Positions 4,666 through 52,470 of a stretch of 64,000 bases of DNA are shown here, in pieces. The stretch is from a virus. Below the pieces are notes generated by a model that saw nothing but the letters and a program-made list of their open reading frames with translations, did not search any database and was not told the DNA's origin. The position numbers and the translations under genes are program-made. The stretch is from the UHGV virus genome UHGV-0096064. One strand, given 5' to 3'. How positions within the stretch are numbered: position 1 is the first letter of the stretch; every line of letters starts with the position of its first letter.

Positions 4666-4707
4666 CCCTCCCGGTCTTGCCTTCGTACCGGGAGGGTTTC
4701 TCTTTTT
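4666..4707 (+). terminator. intrinsic-terminator-like hairpin (U-tract on plus strand)
   Basis: Perfect 10-bp stem CCCTCCCGGT/ACCGGGAGGG with an 11-nt loop, followed by TTTCTCTTTTT on the plus strand. Lies immediately 3' of the giant minus-strand gene (stop at 4709-4711). Confidence 0.5.
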
Positions 4708-16801: not shown

Positions 16802-18445
16802 TTATCGTCCTGAGTTTACGGTCATTTCCGTCATGCCAATATCGACATAATCAACATCGCCAGTCCCATACAGGCCCACTCTATAATTAAGATGTCGGCC
16901 CACTCGTCCAAGTCGCACAGGTTCTTCATCATGGATGTAACACGCATAAGCCAAATCCGGGTGAGGTGTGAGAAGTTTAAACAGCGTCCCTTGCGTCCGT
17001 ACCTTGGCGGTCGTGGGGGATGCCTTGCCGCCGAACGACAGCTCCCGGCTCTCCCAAATGTAGGGGCGCAGCGTGTCCCCGGCGTTCCACTGGTAAATCA
17101 ACCTGTCCGTCTCCAGCATCATAAGCTCACCCGTGCTCGTTGTCACCATGTCCACAGGCTGGTCGCTGATAGTGGAGAGGGCACCCAACCGGAAGTCGGT
17201 GTAAGTATCCCCATCAATCTCCAGCATGAACGAGATGATGTCGGTGACGCAGATGAGGTACCCGCGCCAGTAGGCAAGGCGCACCGTGTCCGGGCGAATC
17301 TTTATCCAGTCGTCCGTACTGAACCACTGCGAGGTGATAATCTGGAACTTGGCATTTGGCATGACAAGGACAAGCCCATCCTTGGAACTGTACACCATCC
17401 CGAACGGCGTGGCGATGGCGGAGTTGGGATAGCCGCAGGCGATGTCCGGGAGAGGGATGTCGGCCTCTTCCGTGTTCCGGCACTTGCGGGGCTCGCAGCT
17501 CGGCCCCCCGTCGATGACGTAGGGGTAGCCATCCGTCGAGACGAACACCGTCGAGTCCACCGTCACCATATGGACGATGTTATACGGCAGAGTCATGTCG
17601 TACTCGGCGGGCCAGTTGTACGGCTGGAAGGCGGCGGAGAAGTGTACCTCGTTGTCGGTCACTCCAGTCAGCACGCCCGTTCCCCGCATGTACCGGATGT
17701 ACCGGAGATTCTTCGGGGGCACCCTGACCTCACGGGTGTTGCACACGGGGCCAAGGTACATCTCTTTCAGCGTGTCCGTATAGGAGTTGGTCGGCAACTG
17801 AATCTCGGCCACTTTCAGGAAGTCGGTGGCGGGTTCCTGTTCCTTCGTATGGTCATCCCGGTAGGCCGTCGCCGTCCGGTAAATCCATATCTCCGTGATA
17901 CCGTACCCATCCGGGGGAAGCGCCATGTTGCTGACGACCACCGGGTCGCCGTCCTTCACGGTGACGGACGTGCTGATAGGACTGGGAGCGGACTCCTCCC
18001 CGAAGATGTTCACGTAGGTGTACATATAGCTTCGGGAGGAACAGTCGCGCCCATCCTTCTCCGTGGCGGATACGGTCGGTGCCGACACCGGGGCCGGGAC
18101 GCCGAGGAAGTAGTAGGTCGGGATGCAGTCATCCAGCACCATCGTCTCCGGTTGGTCGACGCGCCCGGTGAGGAACAGCCGCCCGTAGTCGGTGACATAC
18201 TCGGCGACGGTGACGCACTCGGCCCACGTCAGGGCGTAGCACCCCTTGTAGTACAGGGTCTTGGCATCATTGACCGCCATGTCCACGGCCTTGCGTTCAC
18301 GCCATGCCTGCACCTTGCTGTTCCGCAGCTTCACATCATGGGCGACGGTCGCCTCGTTCTCACGCAACAGATGCCACGGGGTACGCGGTACGATGCCGCC
18401 GAAGTTCTGGATGATGGGCATAATGACTCCTACGATGCGCAGCAC
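16802..18445 (-). CDS. putative tail structural protein
   Basis: 547-aa ORF in the tail region. Beta-rich composition. No family recognised. Confidence 0.4.
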   Translation of the reverse strand: MLRIVGVIMPIIQNFGGIVPRTPWHLLRENEATVAHDVKLRNSKVQAWRERKAVDMAVNDAKTLYYKGCYALTWAECVTVAEYVTDYGRLFLTGRVDQPETMVLDDCIPTYYFLGVPAPVSAPTVSATEKDGRDCSSRSYMYTYVNIFGEESAPSPISTSVTVKDGDPVVVSNMALPPDGYGITEIWIYRTATAYRDDHTKEQEPATDFLKVAEIQLPTNSYTDTLKEMYLGPVCNTREVRVPPKNLRYIRYMRGTGVLTGVTDNEVHFSAAFQPYNWPAEYDMTLPYNIVHMVTVDSTVFVSTDGYPYVIDGGPSCEPRKCRNTEEADIPLPDIACGYPNSAIATPFGMVYSSKDGLVLVMPNAKFQIITSQWFSTDDWIKIRPDTVRLAYWRGYLICVTDIISFMLEIDGDTYTDFRLGALSTISDQPVDMVTTSTGELMMLETDRLIYQWNAGDTLRPYIWESRELSFGGKASPTTAKVRTQGTLFKLLTPHPDLAYACYIHDEEPVRLGRVGRHLNYRVGLYGTGDVDYVDIGMTEMTVNSGR

Positions 18446-36136: not shown

Positions 36137-36487
36137 TCAGTCGTCCGAAACCGTTCGTACCACAGCTTCTTCGTTTGCCGCTTGGATGAATCTGATTTCC
36201 TCAAACCTGTCATTGGCAACCTCCAGCTTGTCGTCATACTGACGAATGATAAGGAGTAAATCCTCAACCGTACAGATGGTATCACCCACGACAGGATGAG
36301 GAATAGGAGCAAGCAAATACTCCGGCACCCGCGTCGTATTCACCTTACTCACTTTCAGGGAAGGCGTGCAGCCCACGCACAAGCTCAGGAGGGATAACAA
36401 CAGACAGCACGCTGCGAACCTCTTGGCTCTGCGCAGCCATTTTAGACAGACGCTTCTCGAAAGATAGGAACTGTGTCTGGCGTTCAT
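36137..36487 (-). CDS. candidate o-spanin (outer-membrane lipoprotein)
   Basis: Signal peptide with a lipobox-like LLLSLLSLCVGC. Pro-containing ~70-aa mature part. Gene overlaps the 3' part of the i-spanin candidate in another frame (Rz/Rz1-like architecture). Confidence 0.45.
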   Translation of the reverse strand: MNARHSSYLSRSVCLKWLRRAKRFAACCLLLSLLSLCVGCTPSLKVSKVNTTRVPEYLLAPIPHPVVGDTICTVEDLLLIIRQYDDKLEVANDRFEEIRFIQAANEEAVVRTVSDD

Positions 36488-36704
36488 GCTCTCTATTCTC
36501 CAACCGTTGCGTCGCTTCTTCCACCCGTGCCGAACGAGCTATTTCTTCTGTCAACACCATATTCATGTCTTGCAGGGATTCTGTCAACAGCTCGTTGCGC
36601 TCACGCAAACTCTCCAACTCCCTGTACCCAAAATAAACCGCCAAGGCAACGACGCCGACAAACACCGCGCCTATGACGGCGGCAACCTTTTCCACTTCGG
36701 ACAT
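36345..36704 (-). CDS. candidate i-spanin
   Basis: N-terminal TM helix (VAAVIGAVFVGVVALAVYFGY) followed by coiled-coil-prone charged sequence. Located after the holin. Confidence 0.45.
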   Translation of the reverse strand: MSEVEKVAAVIGAVFVGVVALAVYFGYRELESLRERNELLTESLQDMNMVLTEEIARSARVEEATQRLENREHERQTQFLSFEKRLSKMAAQSQEVRSVLSVVIPPELVRGLHAFPESE

Positions 36705-38148: not shown

Positions 38149-39255
38149 CTACCGCCAACTAGCTGGAATGTTTGAATAATTTGCCGCATTGGTACAATTC
38201 ATGAAAGTGAAGTCATGGGTCGGCGTGTTCGGGTACTTCGACCACAAGGCCGGGACGCTCGACGTAATGGCGGCATCATACGAGAACGAATGGGTGAAGT
38301 CCTCGACCGATTTGGTCGTATCGAACAACGATTCCGGCACCGTGATTAACCCTGTACAATTATTGAACACATAGGCGAAGTTGGTCACTTTGGTCGTGGT
38401 GCTGAACAGGCCAGACGGGACGACGATAATCTCAGGACACTCCATGAACGTGCCGTAAAAGCTGGTCGCCTCGGTGTTATTCTTGAAAAGCGTCGACGGG
38501 ACTTGAACCAGATTGCTGCACCGGGCGAACGTCCCGGCGAAAAGCTGCGCCTTGGAGTTGTTGGCGAACAGATTCTGCGGCACCTCACGCAACCCGTCGC
38601 AGCCGTCGAAGCAATAGGAAAAGTCCACGACATTGGGGTTCCCCGCGAACAGGTCAGCCGGAATGTCCGTCACCTTCACCAGCCCATGGAAGCAGTTCTG
38701 GAACCCGGTCGCCGCCTTGCAATTGGCAAACAAATTCTCCGGGATGGATGAAATCAGGGAACAGCCGTTGAAGCTGTTGGAGAACCCGGTACACTCCGTC
38801 CACAGGTCAAAGAGGCCCACCGGGATGGAGCGGAGATGCGAGCAGCCGTAGAAGTGGGAATAGGGGTCGGTCAGCACCGGGGGCAAGCTGTAGGTCTCGG
38901 CACCATCCGGCCCGATGTTGACAAGGGTCTCCCGAAAGAATTGGGTATGCGGGATAGCCGCCCGTTCAGGGTTGCTTCCCACGAACTGGACTTGGCGCAT
39001 GTCCTTTGCCCAGATGCGCATGGTGTAAACGCCGGACTGGTCATAGTCGTGGATGAGCTGGTCGGTATCGCTGCTTCCGGCCTTGACGGTCGTGACCTTG
39101 CCATCTCCCCACTCAATGAAGGTATCAATCAGGAATACCCCCCTCTCGTCTTCCAGATAACCGAGCGGCGCGCTCGTCCGCTTTCCCCCGGATGTGGTGG
39201 CCCCGGTGTCCACGACGAACACCATCGGCATCATATTGTCTCTGTATCCATACAT
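38149..39255 (-). CDS. LRR (BspA-like, LRR_5-type) repeat protein, paralog 1
   Basis: Repeats of F..C..L..I.IP..LF.NN..V..F...F. N-terminus MYGYRDN is shared with the other LRR genes. Start refined to an ATG 93 nt inside the track ORF. Confidence 0.7.
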   Translation of the reverse strand: MYGYRDNMMPMVFVVDTGATTSGGKRTSAPLGYLEDERGVFLIDTFIEWGDGKVTTVKAGSSDTDQLIHDYDQSGVYTMRIWAKDMRQVQFVGSNPERAAIPHTQFFRETLVNIGPDGAETYSLPPVLTDPYSHFYGCSHLRSIPVGLFDLWTECTGFSNSFNGCSLISSIPENLFANCKAATGFQNCFHGLVKVTDIPADLFAGNPNVVDFSYCFDGCDGLREVPQNLFANNSKAQLFAGTFARCSNLVQVPSTLFKNNTEATSFYGTFMECPEIIVVPSGLFSTTTKVTNFAYVFNNCTGLITVPESLFDTTKSVEDFTHSFSYDAAITSSVPALWSKYPNTPTHDFTFMNCTNAANYSNIPASWR

Positions 39256-39269
39256 AACGGCATATCCTA

Positions 39270-39285
39270 TGTGTGTGTGTGTGTG
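39270..39285. repeat. (TG)8 dinucleotide microsatellite in divergent promoter region
   Basis: tgtgtgtgtgtgtgtg lies 15-30 nt upstream of the LRR1 start codon (minus strand) and ~80 nt upstream of plus-strand gene 39366. Confidence 0.8.
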
Positions 39286-39365
39286 CATCCCTTGACGAAT
39301 CTGCCTGGCAGTGCATACTACCCCCAAAGAACACCCATTGTCCAACACCCAATACAGGAGCCAAT

Positions 39366-39953
39366 ATGGACAGACTCATTTGCGGCTACCCGGTCGTGCC
39401 CAAGGCGAAAACGCTCATGGTGTACTCCGACCCCGACTATACCAGCCCCTACCCCGGATATGCTCTGGAAGAAGTCATGAACTTCCGTGCGGACGACAAG
39501 CCCTATGTCGGCCCCGTCGAGTTTGAATACGACGACAGCATCACTGGCCCCGCGTCCGTGACGACCGACAGCAAAGGGAAAGCCACCGTCACCCTCACGC
39601 CGAACAGAGATGGCCTCTCCATCATCACATGCAAATTCGGGGGGGGAGAGTACGAACTCAGGTACAGTGTGCTAAACCATCAGGTGAGGTTCGGCGTCAG
39701 AACCATCTACCAGAACCGGAACACCTCCACAACGCTCTGGGTCAACAATAACTTGCAGGAATACAACGGGACGGTCTCCATCAAGTACCCGGCAGGGCTT
39801 ACCGGGCCGACCAGCGGTAAGATAAGCGCCGGGGCGATGGCAATCACCATCAACGGCTCCACGCTCGGACGCAAACAGGTCGACGTCCAGTTCGGCGTGC
39901 AGACCGCCTACTGCGCCGTGGAAGTCATTAAAGACCCGATGCCTCCTCAGTAA
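39366..39953 (+). CDS. hypothetical secreted/Ig-like protein
   Basis: 196 aa from an ATG preceded by AGGAG. Thr/Gly-rich beta composition (TVTLTPNRDGLSIITCKFGGGEYELRYSV). Confidence 0.45.
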   Translation: MDRLICGYPVVPKAKTLMVYSDPDYTSPYPGYALEEVMNFRADDKPYVGPVEFEYDDSITGPASVTTDSKGKATVTLTPNRDGLSIITCKFGGGEYELRYSVLNHQVRFGVRTIYQNRNTSTTLWVNNNLQEYNGTVSIKYPAGLTGPTSGKISAGAMAITINGSTLGRKQVDVQFGVQTAYCAVEVIKDPMPPQ

Positions 39954-40027
39954 CCCGTACACCCCCTGTCATTCCGGCAGGGGGTTTCGTTTTGAACAGG
40001 ATTGACTATCCATTACCCCCCTTAAAA

Positions 40028-40055
40028 TCCTTTGATAAACCCTATCATCAAAGGA
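40028..40055 (+). promoter_or_regulatory. inverted repeat TCCTTTGAT-N10-ATCAAAGGA overlapping the SD of gene 40063
   Basis: Perfect 9-bp arms. The right arm contains the AAGGA Shine-Dalgarno 8 nt upstream of the ATG at 40063. Confidence 0.5.
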
Positions 40056-40062
40056 TGGAACC

Positions 40063-40695
40063 ATGTACGGATATTTGGAAAACAAGGGCAGGGTCATGGG
40101 AAAACTCGCCTTCTCCTGCTCTTGGAACTTCGTCGGCGACCTCGCCAACAACCCCCGGTACAACGCGCTAGTGACGACGCCGAACCTCCTCTTCCTCTCG
40201 ACGTCCTATGAAGAGCCGGGAGCGGATGACGGGATGGAGTTCACCTCAAACGGCCTTGTCTGCACCGAGGGGTCGATTGCCACGAAGACGCAAACGGATT
40301 CAAGCTGGACAATCTCAGGACTTACGGGGTCACAAATCAACATGGGCGCGGGTTCGGCCAATGCCTTCAACATCATCAACTACCTGACCGCATGGGTCTG
40401 GAGTCCGAAGAAGGAACAGTGGTATTCTCTGGGCACACTCCCCTCGTATGCACCGGGGTCTCCGACTTCCGTCAACACCGACCAGCACCTGTCGATGGAT
40501 AGGCAAGGCGAGGTGAGCTACCTCGAAGCCAAGGAACCCTCTGACGACCACCGCATCATCCGGTGGGAAGACTTCGACTTCCACTTCCAGATGACGGCGG
40601 TCTATACGGACAAGTACGAGAGCTGCAACTTCAAGGAACCCATCGTGAACGTGCGCTTCGGCGCGCCCTACGAGTTCGACCCCGACTACTTCTAG
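40063..40695 (+). CDS. hypothetical protein (N-terminus MYGYLENK resembles the LRR paralog N-termini)
   Basis: 210-aa ORF on the opposite strand to the surrounding LRR genes. Confidence 0.5.
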   Translation: MYGYLENKGRVMGKLAFSCSWNFVGDLANNPRYNALVTTPNLLFLSTSYEEPGADDGMEFTSNGLVCTEGSIATKTQTDSSWTISGLTGSQINMGAGSANAFNIINYLTAWVWSPKKEQWYSLGTLPSYAPGSPTSVNTDQHLSMDRQGEVSYLEAKEPSDDHRIIRWEDFDFHFQMTAVYTDKYESCNFKEPIVNVRFGAPYEFDPDYF

Positions 40696-40801
40696 AAAAG
40701 GCCGGAATGGGGCCTAGGATGGCGATAACGGGTCAAGATAGCGTTGGATAAGGGATGAGGGATTGCGAGGCTCTGGAGGGCGTTTCTGCCCCGGAAAAGG
40801 T

Positions 40802-40834
40802 GAACCCCTCTCAAGTTGCAGTTGAGAGGGGTTC
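40802..40834. terminator. strong hairpin (13-bp perfect stem GAACCCCTCTCAA/TTGAGAGGGGTTC, 7-nt loop)
   Basis: Between convergent genes 40063..40695 (+) and the small membrane ORFs (-). TTTT follows on the minus strand. Confidence 0.5.
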
Positions 40835-40939
40835 GGAGGACTGGTCATGTCCATACGTTGGAGTACGTATACGGCAGGAGACCGAAATCAGGATGTTTCC
40901 TTAATTACCCCGCCAGTATACCCCGGACGGGGCTTGAAG

Positions 40940-41071
40940 TCAACAGCCGCCCCATCGCTCCATCGCGTAGATGAGGATGCAGGCTATCACCCATCCCCAG
41001 AAGATGCCGCTGCACGCGGCCCAGAACGGGACGCACAGGAAGACGAACGTGAGGAACAAGATGTAAGCCAT
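40940..41071 (-). CDS. small hydrophobic membrane peptide (43 aa), below track cutoff
   Basis: MAYILFLTFVFLCVPFWAACSGIFWGWVIACILIYAMERWGGC. Start codon 1 nt after the stop of 41073..41264. Hand-derived. Confidence 0.3.
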   Translation of the reverse strand: MAYILFLTFVFLCVPFWAACSGIFWGWVIACILIYAMERWGGC

Positions 41072-41072
41072 A

Positions 41073-41264
41073 CTAAAGAGTTCTCGTGGCCCAAAGGATG
41101 AAGGCGATGCAGGCCAAAAGGCTCACCAGCACGGCGCAGGCAATCGCGAAATCATCCGAGGGCACGGCCTCCCGGTTCTGGCAGGGGCACTGGACGACGA
41201 TGGTTTGGCACACAGGCTGGCACTGGACAGGCATCGGATACTGAACGGACGGAGAAGCATTCAT
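41073..41264 (-). CDS. small membrane protein (63 aa, C-terminal TM helix)
   Basis: Cys/Pro/Gln-rich N-terminus, hydrophobic C-terminus (AIACAVLVSLLACIAFILWA). Confidence 0.35.
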   Translation of the reverse strand: MNASPSVQYPMPVQCQPVCQTIVVQCPCQNREAVPSDDFAIACAVLVSLLACIAFILWATRTL

Positions 41265-41304
41265 ATCGAGGACTCCTTTGGGTTAAATGGTTCGAGAACG
41301 GATG

Positions 41305-42916
41305 TTACTTCCAATCGTCGGGAATGTCAACGTAGTTGGAAGCACTGGTCACGTTGCGGAAACACCTGCCATGGTCGGCGACATCAGGGTATGTCGTCCA
41401 TAGCGTGGGTACGGCGCTTGTTACCTGTGAGCAACCGAGGAATGTACTTACAAAACTTTCCACTTTGCTCTTATTGTCAAACAACCCGGACGGGATGCTC
41501 TTTAGAACCTGCCAATTCGCGAACGTATTCTGGAAAGATGTGACATCCGGCTGGTTCCTGAACAGTCCGGCGGGAATCTCCACACCAGCCCACCACTCGG
41601 AAAAGGCGTTATAGAAGTTGGTCGCCTTGATATTGTTGGCAAATATGTCTTCCGGTATATGCGTCATCTTGGACAAACCGGCAAACACGCTGCCGAAGTT
41701 AGTAACCTTGGTGTTCTTAGCGAAAAGGTTCGCAGGGATTTCTCCCACGATACTCTGACATCCGCTGAACGTGGCGAAGAACACCGTGGCATCCGGCTAG
41801 TTGTCGAACAGTCCTTCGGGTATCCCCGTTATCAGGCTGCAATCGGAGAACACATAGGAGAAATCGGTAATCTTGGGATTGTTGGCGAACAATTCCGCCG
41901 GGATAGTACCCGTCACCTTGTAGCAGCTTTCAAACAGATACTCGACATCCACGAGTTCCGTCATGGCGCTCAGGAGATTGCCCGGAATGGAACCCGTGAG
42001 GTTCCTGCAATTGTCGAACAGATGGGCCACGGTGGTGACTTTCGTATGCTTGGAGAACATGGAGGGCATGGGATTGGCCCAACTCGAACAATTTTGGAAG
42101 GTCGATGCAAACGAAGTCACTTCGAGATTGGTGTCGAATAATGTCGTGGGCACCGAAACCAGCGAGGTGCAACCATAGAACGTGTTGGTGAAGTCGACGA
42201 CTCTGGTGTTCTTGGCGAAAAGTCTGGACGGGATGGTGGTGATGCCGCACGTTGAGAATGTACCGTAAAAAAGTCGTGACGTCCGGGCAATTATCAAAGA
42301 GGTTGTTGGGAATGGCCTTGATGCCGAGGCATCCATAAAAACAATCGGAAAAACTGTTGACCTTGACGGTCTTGTCGAAGAGACCGGATGGGATTTCCGT
42401 CAAACCGGAACAGGTGTGGAACGTGGAGTTGAAGGTCTCGGTGTTCGGATTGCCGTCGAAAATCCCGGCGGGGATGGCCTTCAATTTGGAGCAGCCGTAG
42501 AACGCGCCCTTGAACGCGGTCGGGACAAGTTCCGGAAAGCTGTATCCGGTAGGGTCTTTCGGCACGATGCCGACAAGCGTGTCCTGCCACAAGTCCATGT
42601 TCTTTATGGCGTTCGTAAACGAGCACTTGCCGAGGTCGTCCGCCGTCACTCCTATGACGTACTCGCCCGGCGTCGCGTAAGTATGCGTGGCGTACTCGTC
42701 GAAATAGGCATCACTATACTCGATGCCCTTGGGGATGGTCGTAATGGTGCCGTCGCCCCAATCCACTTGTACGGCAGTCTGCGTTTTATAACCAGACATC
42801 ATATTCTCGAACGCATGGATGGAGCTCATGGCTTTCGTATTGCCCGATGTCGTAGCCTCGGTATTCACGACACAATAGACGTATTCCCTATCCTTATGAT
42901 TCAAATAAGCATACAT
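41305..42916 (-). pseudogene. LRR (BspA-like) paralog 2, disrupted by in-frame TAG (41797-41799) and a +1 frameshift in an A6/T6 run (42267-42272)
   Basis: Three track ORFs (41930..42940, 41797..42336, 41305..41784) are one continuous LRR reading frame. It reads DVTTF|YGTFSTCGITTIP across the homopolymer if one T is removed, and GLFDN-TAG-PDATVFFATFSGC across the stop. Confidence 0.65.
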
Positions 42917-42938
42917 AATGATACTCTCCTTATTTTCC

Positions 42939-42948
42939 ATATATATAT
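42939..42948. repeat. (AT)5 dinucleotide repeat upstream of LRR2 start
   Basis: atatatatat lies 23-32 nt upstream of the SD-preceded ATG (42914-42916) on the minus strand. Confidence 0.6.
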
Positions 42949-42992
42949 GGGGATTCAGTCAAAGAGCGACGCCATGTGAGGTCAGGAGGGGA

Positions 42993-44708
42993 CTACTTCC
43001 AGTCGTCAGGAATGTCGGCGTAGTTGGTCAACTTGCTGCAATTTCTGAAACATTTAGTTCCATTGGCGTCAGGATGAGTGACCCACAAGTCGGGAGCTGT
43101 TCCAACCAGCTTGTAACAATTCTCGAATATCTGGTGGAAATCCTTGATATTCGGATTGTTCACGAAGAGGTTCGTTGGCAGCGTCGTCAAATTGGTGCAT
43201 CCATTAAACATCATCTCCACGTCATCCAGAGCAGGATTGTTGTCAAACAACCCTTCCGGGATGGCACCCTCCAACGTGTTCAAACTATAGAAAGCGTAAG
43301 CCAAATTCTTTAACTTGGGGTTGTTGGCGAACAGCTTGGCGGGAATGGAGCCGTTGAAATCACAACCGTAGAACACGCTGTCGAGATACGTTAGCTCCGG
43401 GCAATTGGCAAAAAGATTCTCAGGAATGGGGCCGTTCAAATTGCATACCCTGAACAAACCGGAAAAAATCTCGGCAAGCGGGTTATGAGCGAACAACCCT
43501 TCCGGAATGGGGCCCACCAAACCATCACAACCATAGAAACAGCCGGAGAAGTTCGTCACTTCGGGGCAATTGGCAAAAAGGTTTTCAGGGATAGTTCCTG
43601 TGAGTCCCTCGCAGAACCGGAAGGTATCCGAAAACGTCTGCACCTTCGTGCAATTGGCAAAGAAGTTCTCAGGAATGGCACCAGTGAGCTTCTCACATTC
43701 ATAGAACGTCGCCTCGAAAGAAATAACTTCGGGGCAATTGGCGAACAAACCCGCAGGCAGGGAACCCGTCAGGCCCTTGCAACCGTAGAATGCAGAGACA
43801 AAGGTACCCGCCTTCCGGTTATTGGCGAAAAGATTCTCAGGAATGGAGCCAGTGATATTTTCGTCAAAATAGAACAATCGGTCAAAAGTGTAAGCTATGG
43901 TGTTGTGGGCAAAAAGGTTTTCAGGGATAGGCCCTGTCAATCCAGGGCAGTGGCTGAATACATAGGCGAACGATGTCACATTGGGATTGTTGGCGAAGAG
44001 ATTCTCAGGAATTTCAGTCAGTCCCTCACAACCATTGAACACGCTGTCAAACTTGTAAACTTTTGGACAATTGGCAAAAAGGTTTTCAGGGATAGACGTG
44101 ATATTTTCACAGCTATAGAATGTGGAAGCAAACGACTCGACCTTGGTGTTCTTGGTGAAAAGGTCTTCGGGAAGCGCACCCGTAAGTCCAAGACAATAAT
44201 AGAACGTATTTTCAAAAGTGGTGGCGTCTACGTTTTTGTAGAATATGCCTTTAGGAACCTGCGTCAACTTCTTGCAACTATAAAAGGCATAAGCAAGTCC
44301 GTCATGCCGGAAAACAGGCAGCGAATAGGACTCGGCACCCTTGGGGCCAATCCCGATAAGAGTTCTTCTATAGACATTCCATTCACTCTGGTTGATGTCA
44401 TAACCATGCAACTTGCAGACGCTGAAATCATCAGCGTAAACAGTCACAGTATATTCGCCGGGGGTGGCATAGTCATGCGTGGAATATTTATCCCAATACT
44501 GTGAATAAAACTCCGTACCCTTGGGAATTTCGGAAATTGAACCATCACCCCAATCAATAGTAATTGCCGTCAGGGATTGCTCATCAAGACCAAAGCTATT
44601 GAATGAATATACTGGAACCACAAACTCGGTATCACCCTCGTTGGTGGCCTCGGTATTTATAAGAAAGATAAGGCTTTCACGCGGCTCATTGTCACGATAA
44701 CCATACAT
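42993..44708 (-). CDS. LRR (BspA-like) repeat protein, paralog 3 (571 aa)
   Basis: About 18 LRR_5-type repeats (FxxCxxLTGxIPExLFANxP.V..F). Start refined to the MYGYRDNEP ATG with AAAGGAGA upstream. The track ORF extends a further 234 nt upstream. Confidence 0.7.
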   Translation of the reverse strand: MYGYRDNEPRESLIFLINTEATNEGDTEFVVPVYSFNSFGLDEQSLTAITIDWGDGSISEIPKGTEFYSQYWDKYSTHDYATPGEYTVTVYADDFSVCKLHGYDINQSEWNVYRRTLIGIGPKGAESYSLPVFRHDGLAYAFYSCKKLTQVPKGIFYKNVDATTFENTFYYCLGLTGALPEDLFTKNTKVESFASTFYSCENITSIPENLFANCPKVYKFDSVFNGCEGLTEIPENLFANNPNVTSFAYVFSHCPGLTGPIPENLFAHNTIAYTFDRLFYFDENITGSIPENLFANNRKAGTFVSAFYGCKGLTGSLPAGLFANCPEVISFEATFYECEKLTGAIPENFFANCTKVQTFSDTFRFCEGLTGTIPENLFANCPEVTNFSGCFYGCDGLVGPIPEGLFAHNPLAEIFSGLFRVCNLNGPIPENLFANCPELTYLDSVFYGCDFNGSIPAKLFANNPKLKNLAYAFYSLNTLEGAIPEGLFDNNPALDDVEMMFNGCTNLTTLPTNLFVNNPNIKDFHQIFENCYKLVGTAPDLWVTHPDANGTKCFRNCSKLTNYADIPDDWK

Positions 44709-44738
44709 ATTGGTTCTCCTTTTTGTCCTTTCTATACA

Positions 44739-44748
44739 AGAGAGAGAG
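44739..44748. repeat. (AG)5 dinucleotide repeat upstream of LRR3 start
   Basis: agagagagag lies ~31-40 nt upstream of the ATG at 44706-44708 (minus strand). Confidence 0.55.
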
Positions 44749-45255
44749 CTGGCAAGGACTGGAGCGGGACAGGGTGTGGGCCGGGAACTGGACTGGAAAT
44801 TTCTCCGAAAAAATTTTGGAGGGGGTGAATGCTGTGGATTCAGACGGGGGTCAACGAAGCCCCCACCCCCCCTCGGACTGGACTCATCTACGAACTCGGC
44901 GTCGACGGTGTCGCGCAATGTAGGTTGGCACAGGAATTGCATAGGAAAAGTTGCTCGAAGTCGCGAGCGTTCCTATATATGGAGTGGCCGGGGCGCGCCA
45001 AGTCCTTCGTCCAAATCCCCCGCCGGGCCGTCCCTACCCTCGACGCCCTCGACGCCCTCGACGCCCTCCCGCCCGCCTCACTCCATCACCTTGATGAAGC
45101 GGCCTGACGCGCCGCCTGCTCCACGTTCGCGGCTCATCCCTACCTTATATATACCCTGACCTTTTCGCCGCAAGCTGACGCGCTTCCCGTCCTGCTATGT
45201 CATCAGCTCCATCCAGTCCCGCCAGTCCCGCCAGTCCTACCAGACAACCAAGTGC

Positions 45256-45548
45256 ACAATGTAATATCAACAAACCTATATTACATTGTTACCTACACTG
45301 TAGTATTACACTGTTACAGGTGTTATATTGTAGCATTACACTGTAACGCGCAATGTACTTTTACAATGTAACACCTGTTACAATGTAATGTTATTGTAAA
45401 TTACATTGCACACTTGCTTACATTGTTATGGCATTGTTTTTTACATTGTTGCAGGTGTTACATTGTTTTTTACAATGTAAGTTACACTGTAAGTGTAATT
45501 ACATTGCATGTAACATTGCGTCGCGCAATGTAAATTTTTACAATGTAA
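45256..45548. repeat. dense array of 11-bp palindrome TTACAnTGTAA (about 17 copies in 300 bp; about 24 in 45250-46250) - putative iterons/operator array
   Basis: For example TTACAATGTAA at about 45361, 45378, 45470, 45538, 45817; TTACATTGTAA at about 45686 and 46119; TTACACTGTAA at about 45336 and 45482. Includes a perfect 12-bp IR ACAATGTAATAT-N10-ATATTACATTGT at 45256-45289. Confidence 0.75.
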
Positions 45549-45571
45549 TTACACACAGCGCGGGTTCCTTA

Positions 45572-45589
45572 TTGATAATGGATTATCAA
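45572..45589. promoter_or_regulatory. perfect palindrome TTGATAAT-GG-ATTATCAA (operator-like)
   Basis: 8-bp arms with a 2-bp spacer, immediately followed by CTTGCAACTTTTGCAA. Confidence 0.5.
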
Positions 45590-45752
45590 CTTGCAACTTT
45601 TGCAAAAAACGAGATTCCGTAAGTTGTTGAATTTGTTGACCCGGAAAAATTTTCGCAAACCCCAAAAAGTGGTGAAAAAATTACACAGGGAGAAAGTTAC
45701 ATTGTAAAAACGGGGACGAACGGGAGGACAGGAAGAGTAGAAAAATCAAGGG

Positions 45753-45811
45753 TTTATATATATTATTTTTTAAAAAAGAATAAAATATATATATGTACTA
45801 TGTAACTTTTT
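45753..45811. other. AT-rich stretch (~59 bp, 3-4 G/C) - candidate DNA-unwinding element
   Basis: tttatatatattattttttaaaaaagaataaaatatatatatgtactatgtaactttttacc in an otherwise ~60% GC genome. Flanked by iteron-like repeats. Confidence 0.45.
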
Positions 45812-46429
45812 ACCCCCTTACAATGTAACGGCCTATCCTAGTCGGCAAAAATGCAAAATGCTTTTTTCCAAATCGCCGAACTTGATTGTGAAAATTTTCA
45901 CCACTCAGGCGGCCTCGATTTACATAAGCTGCTATGTAACTTTTTGCGGAACCCCCCAAAAAAAACTTGCAAATTTGCATACCCCCTTGAAAATCAGCGT
46001 AACACTTCAACGATTTCAACAACTTGCAACCAATTTTAAAATGCAAGTGAATTTTTTCACACTTGCAACTAGTTGGAATATATTAGGATACATCTTGCAA
46101 GTCAATTTGCAACCCCATTTTTACATTGTAAAAAGTAAAATCGTGTTACTCGTTTACATTGCGCAACACCGTCGACGCCGCCTTACACTGCATAACGCAA
46201 TGTAAAAACAATGCAACAATCCTCACTATGTAATTACATTGTTCTGCCCCTTGTCCAGTTCTGAGCGCGACACACGCGACGCCGTCCCCAAGTCCTGAGC
46301 TCCGCCCTGTCGCCTCTGCCTTCCGAATCCGGTTTCACTATCCCCAATAATCCAGTTCACCTTAACATCTTGATATTCCTACTCAATCCAGTTCAACAAA
46401 AATAATTCCGAAAATTTTCGCTACAACTC

Positions 46430-51957: not shown

Positions 51958-52470
51958 GTGATGATAGGGCTATTCATTCAAGCAACCAGCATGGAGGGGA
52001 CGCGCAACGTCCTGCTTGTCCTGACCGGACAACAGGAGAAAGTCCTGAACCTTCAAGGCAACGAGTCGTTGATTGCCACGGTTATCAACGGTATGGACTT
52101 GGCTTTGCCTGAGACTCCTCCTGTTCCAGACAACGGGATGGGAGAGCCCCGGCAAGTCTGCATTCCTCATACCCTGTCTGAGCTTACGCCAACGGACAAG
52201 TTCAAGCTGGTCATGAGCAACCCCCCCCTGTATGCGGACGGGGAAGACGTCGACTTGCTGGACGTGGACTGGTCATGGGTTATCCCCCATCCCATACGGG
52301 CATCCCGGTTTGTTCGTATCTTGCAGAAGCTAGGCATCCATACCGTGGCGGATATGTCCATCCCGTCCCGTGCCGACTACATGCACACGCCGGGGATTGG
52401 GAGGATAAGCCTCATGGCTATCGAGGGCGTGCTCCATATGTACGGCTACACCTTGAGCGCGGGGGATTGA
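51958..52470 (+). CDS. protein with C-terminal RNA polymerase alpha-subunit CTD-like helix-hairpin-helix domain
   Basis: RASRFVRILQKLGIHTVADMSIPSRADYMHTPGIGRISLMAIEGVLHMYGYTL follows the alpha-CTD pattern (L.LSVR..N.L....I..VGDL......LL...N.G.KSL.EI...L...GL). Start uncertain. Confidence 0.5.
   Translation: MMIGLFIQATSMEGTRNVLLVLTGQQEKVLNLQGNESLIATVINGMDLALPETPPVPDNGMGEPRQVCIPHTLSELTPTDKFKLVMSNPPLYADGEDVDLLDVDWSWVIPHPIRASRFVRILQKLGIHTVADMSIPSRADYMHTPGIGRISLMAIEGVLHMYGYTLSAGD

Follow-up and report, generated by a model that had tools for sequence, protein, structure and literature searches.

The 64,000-nt stretch of virus genome UHGV-0096064 analysed here (the window) represents a phage genome with a G+C content of 57%. 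Three of its genes, LRR1 to LRR3, encode leucine-rich repeat (LRR) proteins, and each of these genes is preceded by a dinucleotide repeat. By comparing the window with related phages, we found that these tracts, together with three homopolymers in the same gene cluster, are hypermutable and change by whole units much faster than point substitutions accumulate. Judging from the sequence and placement of these simple sequence repeats (SSRs), we consider it likely, with a probability of roughly 0.6, that the set serves regulatory bet-hedging in the manner of bacterial contingency loci. Such loci are central to our understanding of how bacteria adapt to their hosts; phages were credited with them only recently, and so far with coding homopolymers only.

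Occurrence and length variation of the repeats

A preliminary description of this DNA had placed (TG)8, (AT)5 and (AG)5 on the plus strand, 15 to 40 nt before the starts of the LRR genes. Its coordinates proved exact (Table 1), and the tracts lie 15–30 (LRR1), 23–32 (LRR2) and 31–40 nt (LRR3) upstream of the respective ATG. LRR1, LRR2 and LRR3 are paralogues encoded on the minus strand, and the tracts as read on the coding strand are therefore (CA)8, (AT)5 and (CT)5, each sitting just 5′ of a Shine-Dalgarno motif. Scanning the whole window, we found seven dinucleotide runs of at least four units and four of at least five units, none of the latter within coding DNA, as had been claimed for runs of this length. 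The fourth run of at least five units, an (AT)5 at 45785–45794, is non-coding and had been overlooked. Runs of at least five units are expected 0.69, 0.30 or 0.155 times per 64 kb under Markov models of order 1, 2 and 3, respectively, compared with the four observed, a number reached in 0 of 200 simulations at each order, while runs of at least eight units averaged 0.0. Four-unit runs occur at chance level (7 observed vs 3.7–10 expected). A model trained on local non-coding DNA yielded at most 2e-5 runs per nt, which makes it very improbable that each of three starts would have a run within 40 nt. The three dinucleotide tracts are beyond chance. More generally, 26 of the 40 SSRs in the window are concentrated in 38–48 kb.

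Table 1. Position of genes, repeat tracts and predicted promoters in the LRR gene cluster of the window
Feature	Position	Strand	Remarks
LRR1	38149–39255	−	368 aa; predicted N-terminal beta-sandwich (PKD-like WGDG...H.Y..G.Y motif), then BspA/DUF285-type LRR solenoid
LRR1 coding poly-G	39138–39145	−	codons 36–38; window allele GAGGGGGG (gene strand), interrupted by an A, in frame
(CA)8	39270–39285	−	(TG)8 on the plus strand; in the 110-nt divergent intergenic region between LRR1 and the Ig-like gene
Predicted promoter of the Ig-like gene	39292–39319	+	gene divergent from LRR1; TTGACG (39292–39297), 16 nt, CATACT
Predicted LRR1 promoter	39315–39344	−	sigma-70-type; TGGACA, 18 nt, TAGTAT; 9/12 match
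G5 run	39322–39326	−	C5 on the plus strand; within the spacer of the predicted LRR1 promoter
Ig-like gene	39366–39953	+	Big_1/Big_3-like, 195 aa; divergent from LRR1; coding G8 at 39639–39646
Predicted promoter of the MYGY gene	40002–40028	+	near-consensus; TTGACT (40002–40007), 15-nt spacer, TAAAAT (40023–40028)
Poly-C (C6)	40016–40021	+	inside the spacer of the predicted MYGY-gene promoter
MYGY gene	40063–40695	+	210 aa; product begins MYGYLENKG and shares its first residues with the LRR proteins
LRR2	41305–42916	−	pseudogene in the window lineage
(AT)5 before LRR2	42939–42948	−	8 nt downstream of TTGACT (42957–42962)
LRR3	42993–44708	−	571 aa; architecture as LRR1; first gene after the 1.7-kb non-coding control region
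(CT)5	44739–44748	−	(AG)5 on the plus strand; between TTGCCA (44750–44755, 5/6 match to −35) and TG-TATAGA (44731–44738)

To follow tract length in nature, relatives of the window were retrieved by a DNA pattern scan, by protein-anchored scans, by exact-protein look-ups (of the endolysin, the Ig-like protein and a 63-aa protein) and by look-ups of homologues from protein searches. The resulting comparison set covers about 15 independent samples and about 12 lineages that are 93–100% identical to the window; all are assembled consensus contigs from short-read metagenomes, and gene calls were taken from those accompanying the fetched contigs (high-GC sequence). Among these relatives, all three dinucleotide tracts vary in whole units between invariant flanks. 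The (CA)n tract occurs with n = 3, 5, 6, 7, 8 and 10 between identical flanks, its terminal CA being changed to TA in two lineages; the (CT)n tract occurs with n = 4, 5, 6, 7 and 8; and the AT tract before LRR2 measures 7, 9, 10, 11 or 15 nt. The preliminary description had allowed that its two five-unit tracts might be due to chance, a doubt that is removed by the length variation of both (AT)5 and (AG)5. It had also named a lack of length polymorphism, or an equal frequency of such tracts in other intergenic DNA, as what would speak against its idea; length polymorphism is present, such tracts are uncommon elsewhere in the window, and the other (AT)5 is invariant. Three additional variable repeats had escaped its attention, namely the poly-C at 40016, the G-run at 39322 and the poly-G within LRR1.

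The pace of these changes is best seen in the closest pairs of genomes. The window and L006 differ by 3 substitutions in 15.1 kb, yet carry (CA)8 vs (CA)5 and G5 vs G6 at the G-run; L003 and L010 have no substitution over 5279 nt and differ solely in the LRR1 poly-G (10 vs 9); and L020 and L022, with no substitution over 1.9 kb, differ by four indels, which fall at all four SSRs of that stretch. No site other than the (TG) tract carries an indel in all pairwise comparisons, and in the closest pairs the indel at (TG) is among just two or three in 8–10 kb. As a control, we scored 28 SSRs in 27.3–47.8 kb (homopolymers of at least 6 nt and dinucleotide runs of at least 4 units) in a flank-anchored scan. 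Six of the 28 were variable, and five of these lie at the LRR and MYGY genes (LRR1 poly-G, (TG)n, poly-C at 40016, the T-run of LRR2 and (AG)n), the sixth being an A6 at 45772. The (AT)5 before LRR2 could not be scored in this way, as its flanks differ between relatives, and its alleles come from manual comparison. No change in length was seen at the (AT)5 at 45785, the A8 at 45958–45965 or the C7 at 44866, and the coding G8 of the Ig-like gene had constant length in 14 of the 14 loci found. The cluster combines repeats beyond chance, their location in predicted promoters, 5′ untranslated regions (5′UTRs) or 5′ coding sequence, and unit-step polymorphism above the substitution rate, three of the features by which contingency loci are recognised.

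Two further coding homopolymers deserve mention. In L041, which was fetched later, the Ig-like gene is broken exactly at its G8, reading GGGGGAGGG. The coding C8 at 52221–52228 (...MSNPPLY...) has equal length in L024, the sole relative covering the site.

Predicted effects on promoters, leaders and reading frames

We infer the promoter assignments from consensus matching, and the effect on expression, the reversibility within a population and the roles of the proteins are inferred in turn. Sigma-70-like sites are enriched in the region (19 vs 9.0 ± 2.7), the sigma-70 consensus being assumed. At the two homopolymers in predicted promoters, tract length translates directly into spacer length: G4, G5 and G6 alleles of the G-run at 39322–39326 would give the LRR1 promoter spacers of 17, 18 and 19 nt, and poly-C length alone would extend the spacer of the MYGY-gene promoter from 15 nt in the window to 16, 18 and 22 nt in relatives. 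The −35 element of the LRR1 promoter reads TTGACG in an IMG/VR relative. The preliminary description had located all three dinucleotide tracts between promoter and Shine-Dalgarno motif, which appears correct for (CA)8, whereas (CT)n and (AT)n apparently lie inside or at the promoter. Across (CT)n the predicted spacer is 3 + 2n, and the observed alleles would give 11, 13, 15, 17 and 19 nt; at the AT tract, TATATA at 17-nt spacing from TTGACT arises with the 15-nt allele only (L041).

For LRR1, (CA)n lies downstream of the predicted promoter, probably in a leader (5′UTR) of about 55 nt, and outside the spacers of both predicted promoters of the intergenic region; it ends 6 nt upstream of the −35 element of the opposite-strand Ig-like-gene promoter. 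Possible routes by which it could act are leader length or composition, upstream-element geometry, and Z-DNA under divergent transcription. As a minor possibility, an alternative LRR1 promoter would have (CA)n in its spacer (TCGTCA, 7 + 2n nt or 17 nt at n = 5, TAGGAT); this candidate matches the consensus at 8 of 12 positions only, and its mRNA would be leaderless. The coding poly-G of LRR1 is found in frame as G5, G8 and G11 and out of frame as G7, G9 and G10, and in the out-of-frame state, present in 4 of 14 lineages, the protein is truncated at about 41–43 aa. In an AlphaFold model (pLDDT, the predicted local distance difference test, of 91), the residues encoded by the poly-G map to a low-pLDDT loop of the N-terminal beta-sandwich, and such a low-confidence, putatively surface-exposed loop fits the tolerance of one to three glycines.

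A different picture emerges for LRR2. Its homopolymer frameshift had been taken as a further switch, but the additional T (T5 to T6 at 42267–42272; A6 on the plus strand) is accompanied by a CAG to TAG nonsense change at 41797–41799, and the window shares both lesions with every one of the four near-identical contigs covering the site (L004–L007). Neither is found in L008, which has T5 and CAG; L003, L010 and L024 also have T5. Since both lesions are fixed in the lineage, LRR2 is a fixed pseudogene there and its (AT)5 precedes a dead gene. The earlier proposal that the LRR proteins are stochastically varied consequently loses the LRR2 frameshift as an argument, and gains the frame alleles of the LRR1 poly-G and the two promoter-spacer homopolymers.

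In the mechanism that we propose, at least six hypermutable SSRs would act together from the 5′ regions of an accessory cluster made up of three BspA-like LRR genes and the gene whose product starts with MYGY. Slipped-strand mispairing in phage DNA replication would add or remove whole units, and progeny would inherit differing tract lengths. Tract length would set the −35/−10 spacing, and hence the strength of transcription, at the two promoter-spacer homopolymers (poly-C at 40016 and G-run at 39322) and probably at (CT)n; (AT)n may act likewise on promoter spacing. The (CA)n tract, within the LRR1 leader and directly upstream of the divergent promoter, would be a graded modulator rather than an on/off switch, while the poly-G in codons 36–38 would switch the LRR1 reading frame ON or OFF, an effect that follows directly from the sequence. 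A phage population would thereby come to contain a mixture of expression states of several proteins that bind ligands and possibly belong to the virion or interact with the host. More tentatively, and with a little less than an even chance, the cluster may represent a phage ‘phasome’, in which six or more repeats (three dinucleotide and three homopolymer), each slipping independently, would determine, for four accessory ligand-binding proteins, how strong the promoter is, how long the leader is or which frame is read, such that a single burst would yield virions or lysates whose LRR-protein complements differ combinatorially. Such a contingency system with dinucleotide repeats in promoters would be without earlier example in a bacterial virus, to judge from the literature that we searched; sister lineages carry a diversity-generating retroelement on their tail-fibre genes instead.

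Competing explanations and known systems

Several observations weigh against a regulatory function. Use of sigma-70 promoters by the host is an assumption, and the assignments at two of the dinucleotide tracts are weak: both the TATAGA beside (CT)n and the −10-like hexamer at (AT)n lack the conserved T at −7, and most of the observed (CT)n alleles would yield non-optimal spacers of 11–15 nt. Predicted folding of the LRR1 leader and accessibility of its Shine-Dalgarno motif and AUG showed no dependence on (CA)n for n = 0–12, and the effect of this tract would therefore be graded at most. Haplotypes common to several samples indicate that switching is not extremely fast. Finally, genes of the cluster also decay by irreversible mutations: besides the LRR2 nonsense change, LRR3 has a nonsense substitution in L006 (window ~43397), among the 3 substitutions that separate this contig from the window, and a 1-nt deletion frameshifts the 210-aa gene in L024 (window 40330). 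Such ordinary gene decay fits relaxed selection as well as contingency.

These inactivating mutations across the cluster suggest that it is dispensable, and they keep alive the main rival to regulation, namely neutral microsatellite instability in a decaying accessory module, where selection against repeats would be relaxed and the tracts, slippery by nature, would vary for want of constraint and have no regulatory role. The T6 that accompanies the TAG in LRR2, the absence of the cluster from more distant relatives, a gene number ranging from two to four, and the insensitivity of RNA folding to n would all be expected under such a scenario. We nevertheless regard it as unlikely, because all six SSRs, which represent five different motifs, occupy promoter, 5′UTR or 5′ coding sites of four genes; the tracts vary between unchanging flanks, among them the predicted −35 and −10 hexamers; comparable tracts in the adjoining 1.7-kb non-coding region do not change; and long pure tracts such as (CA)10, G11, C9 and (AT)7 persist.

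A further explanation is that the tracts mainly are, or mark, recombination junctions, with microhomology at the 5′ boundary allowing LRR coding cassettes to swap positions. Exchange of this kind does take place in the cluster. In two independent comparisons, the point at which homology between relatives is lost coincides exactly with the AT tract, and the leader types (CT-type and AT-type) keep to their position while coding cassettes are exchanged between positions, a mosaic structure noted at 42917–42992 of the window, at 4680–4860 of L003 and at the LRR leaders of L023 and L020. One coding sequence (MYGYLKHKDMETL...) stands behind a CT-type leader in L020 and L022 but behind an AT-type leader in L023, all LRR cassettes share the first codons ATG TAT/TGG GGN TAY, and LRR genes differ among relatives in order as well as in number. 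However, no breakpoint was found at (CA)n or at the homopolymers, unit-step changes occur without flanking exchange, and such junctions would in any case be compatible with a regulatory role, so we give this explanation little credence as an account of the tracts. Sequencing or assembly artefacts at low-complexity sequence are less probable still and, in our view, barely conceivable. It is true that the relatives are without exception short-read metagenome assemblies and that poly-G of 9–11 nt is error-prone on some platforms, but identical alleles recur across independent samples and different assemblers (three contigs share (CA)8/G5 with the window, three others have (CA)5/G6, and L020 is identical to L021), the G8 at 39639, the A8 at 45958 and the (AT)5 at 45785 are constant in every locus found, and dinucleotide tracts of 6–20 nt are well within read accuracy. 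Recurrent alleles and invariant control repeats together make assembly noise unlikely.

Repeats that alter promoter spacing are established in bacteria. In Neisseria meningitidis, homopolymer tracts occupy the promoter spacers of porA and opc. The poly-C at 40016–40021 and the G-run at 39322–39326 resemble these in lying between predicted −35 and −10 elements, with natural spacers of 15–22 and 17–19 nt; they differ in their phage context and shorter tracts (4–9 nt). For dinucleotides, the closest parallel is the divergent hifA/hifB fimbrial promoter of Haemophilus influenzae with (TA)9–11 (van Ham 1993), where, as summarised in PMC2651432, unit changes alter promoter geometry and the product is likewise an adhesion-type surface protein. 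In contrast to this bacterial system, (TG)8 in the phage lies downstream of one best-scoring −35/−10 pair and upstream of the other, and only (CT)n, possibly also (AT)n, falls between −35-like and −10-like hexamers, both of which are weak. A possible model for (CA)n in a leader is the heptanucleotide SSR in the 5′UTR of H. influenzae hmw1A, which is transcribed in the leader and grades expression with repeat number (PMC12721329); hmw1A, however, needs a long hairpin cleaved by RNase III, whereas the (CA)n leader has no predicted n-dependent structure.

Among phages, poly-G tracts have been described in receptor-binding protein genes of Campylobacter Fletchervirus phages (Sorensen et al. 2021, as cited in bioRxiv 10.1101/2025.10.21.683753, PMC12823448). 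As presented there, these are coding poly-G tracts of 7–11 nt with in- and out-of-frame variants in a putative host-interaction protein, which the G5–G11 alleles of LRR1 match, and the LRR1 poly-G would belong to the same type. What sets the present cluster apart from that account are the extra SSRs in predicted promoters and leaders, including dinucleotides, the BspA-like LRR proteins with putative virion association, and the uncultured status of the phage. In T2/T4 and other coliphages, SSR slippage creates population heterogeneity (Gomez, Barrick and Waters, bioRxiv 10.1101/2025.10.21.683753); contingency loci are defined in that work as homopolymers of at least 6 nt, mostly in open reading frames (ORFs), and a text search of it gave no occurrence of ‘dinucleotide’ or ‘promoter’, while dinucleotides in predicted promoters and leaders are also part of the cluster described here. 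Coding homopolymers were thus known before, and what appears new for phages are promoter and leader repeats, especially dinucleotide ones. If the regulatory function is real, it would extend the contingency idea to phage promoters in which dinucleotide and homopolymer tracts govern transcription and to a multi-gene, combinatorial switch set, in an abundant uncultured phage of the human gut whose natural range of alleles is already accessible through public metagenomes. Should the LRR proteins be receptor-binding or adhesive, the repeats would give heritable, reversible heterogeneity in host range or mucosal attachment, with a bearing on models of phage-host coexistence in the gut and on the reading of ‘strain-level’ phage variation in metagenomes. 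The six tracts and three invariant control repeats provide a ready marker set.

The LRR proteins, the phage and its control region

The products of the LRR genes begin with MYGY or MYAY. Against the LRR_5 (PF13306) profile, LRR3 scored 26.6 bits, below the cut-off of 27.7, and LRR1 had no Pfam hit. At E ≤ 1e-10, 1607 homologues were found; they are surface proteins of the BspA/DUF285 type, mostly from Bacteroidales, many of them with PF03382 (DUF285) and some named BspA family, and the proteins also match phrog_9915 (E = 8e-91). In the AlphaFold2 model the LRR part forms a solenoid whose Foldseek matches are LRR receptors; the Foldseek search of the PDB returned generic LRR receptors only, with no specific functional lead. 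Together, sequence and model indicate that LRR1 and LRR3 consist of a PKD-like N-terminal beta-sandwich followed by a BspA-like LRR solenoid. In the P2-like Klebsiella phage ST16-OXA48phi5.4, a homologous LRR domain (31% identity) forms the C-terminus of ‘tail protein I’, which makes a receptor-binding role of the LRR proteins plausible. The genes themselves lie outside the structural module, between the 1.7-kb control region and the lysis cassette, in a typical moron position, and the proteins may alternatively be released at lysis. Within the body of LRR1 (window 38476–38500), the assemblies of two samples are interrupted at the same place (an N-gap in L006; a contig end between L013 and L018), and L003 and L010 have a deletion of about 140 nt nearby, which suggests that the number of LRR repeats in LRR1 is heterogeneous.

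The fourth gene of the cluster, encoding the 210-aa MYGY protein, is missing from some relatives and was split by gene callers in L030. Between its predicted −10 element and its start, a perfect 8-bp inverted repeat CCTTTGAT...ATCAAAGG (40029–40054), whose 3′ arm overlaps the Shine-Dalgarno motif, could be an operator or a leader hairpin.

We regard the source of the window as an uncultured, podovirus-like phage of the human gut with a Gram-negative host. Near-identical contigs of 62–66 kb derive from human-gut metagenomes. The lysis genes at 36.3–37.9 kb comprise a holin (PF05105), an endolysin-like protein and an Rz-like spanin (36345–36704), and the presence of the latter points to a Gram-negative host. 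Genes for the terminase large subunit, portal/adaptor, major head protein and internal virion proteins lie on the minus strand; the internal virion protein at 16802–18445, the sole structural protein compared with cultured phages, shows only about 26% identity to podoviral Stx-type phages. A megablast search of 36–47 kb against 50,697 phage records gave no match, indicating that there is no close cultured relative at the DNA level. The endolysin had no relative in 185,579 species genomes, and scans of the window for tRNAs and Rfam families found nothing. As to the host, matches of the terminase large subunit to three contigs of metagenome-assembled genomes (L033–L035; Methanocorpusculum, Bacteroidaceae and Sodaliphilus) were rejected, being mutually inconsistent, at odds with the strong Shine-Dalgarno motifs and the Rz-like spanin, and probably mis-binned phage contigs; no host was assigned.

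The more distant relatives, whose endolysins are 59–67% identical, carry no LRR cluster. In L038–L040 (13.8–18.8 kb of each locus), several Mtd_N/mtd_2nd tail-fibre genes stand beside an RVT_1 reverse transcriptase, constituting a diversity-generating retroelement, and L036 has Mtd_N genes with no reverse transcriptase called within the fetched stretch. Diversity-generating retroelements of the Bordetella phage BPP-1 type act on Mtd tail fibres, and are another way to diversify the host-recognition proteins of a phage by a mechanism entirely different from SSR slippage. At the place equivalent to the Mtd_N genes, the window encodes a 1471-aa BppL_N-like protein; a reverse transcriptase was not met among the part of the window ORFs that was searched.

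Upstream of LRR3, the non-coding control region is itself rich in repeats. The ATATATA/TATAG(A/G) sequences upstream of several late genes had been considered as a phage-specific promoter (similar to the ‘...TATAG’ of T7/SP6); this idea was dropped because TATAGRR occurs window-wide mostly within coding DNA and at inconsistent positions relative to gene starts. The low-GC segment at 45250–46250 carries dense TTACA(A/T/C)TGTAA-like direct and inverted repeats and resembles an iteron or operator array. Whole units of it have been gained or lost in relatives, one instance being the 13-nt ATTACACTGTAAC insertion of L022. The adjoining 44750–45240 segment contains the 9-mer tandem repeats GACGCCCTC (three copies, ~45040–45066) and CCAGTCCCG (three copies, ~45213–45240), and is flanked on both sides by CCAGTCC motifs in opposite orientations. 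Relatives have, directly upstream of (CT)n, an additional 10-nt unit that contains CCAG, and these repeats and CCAG units may be binding sites of a regulator.

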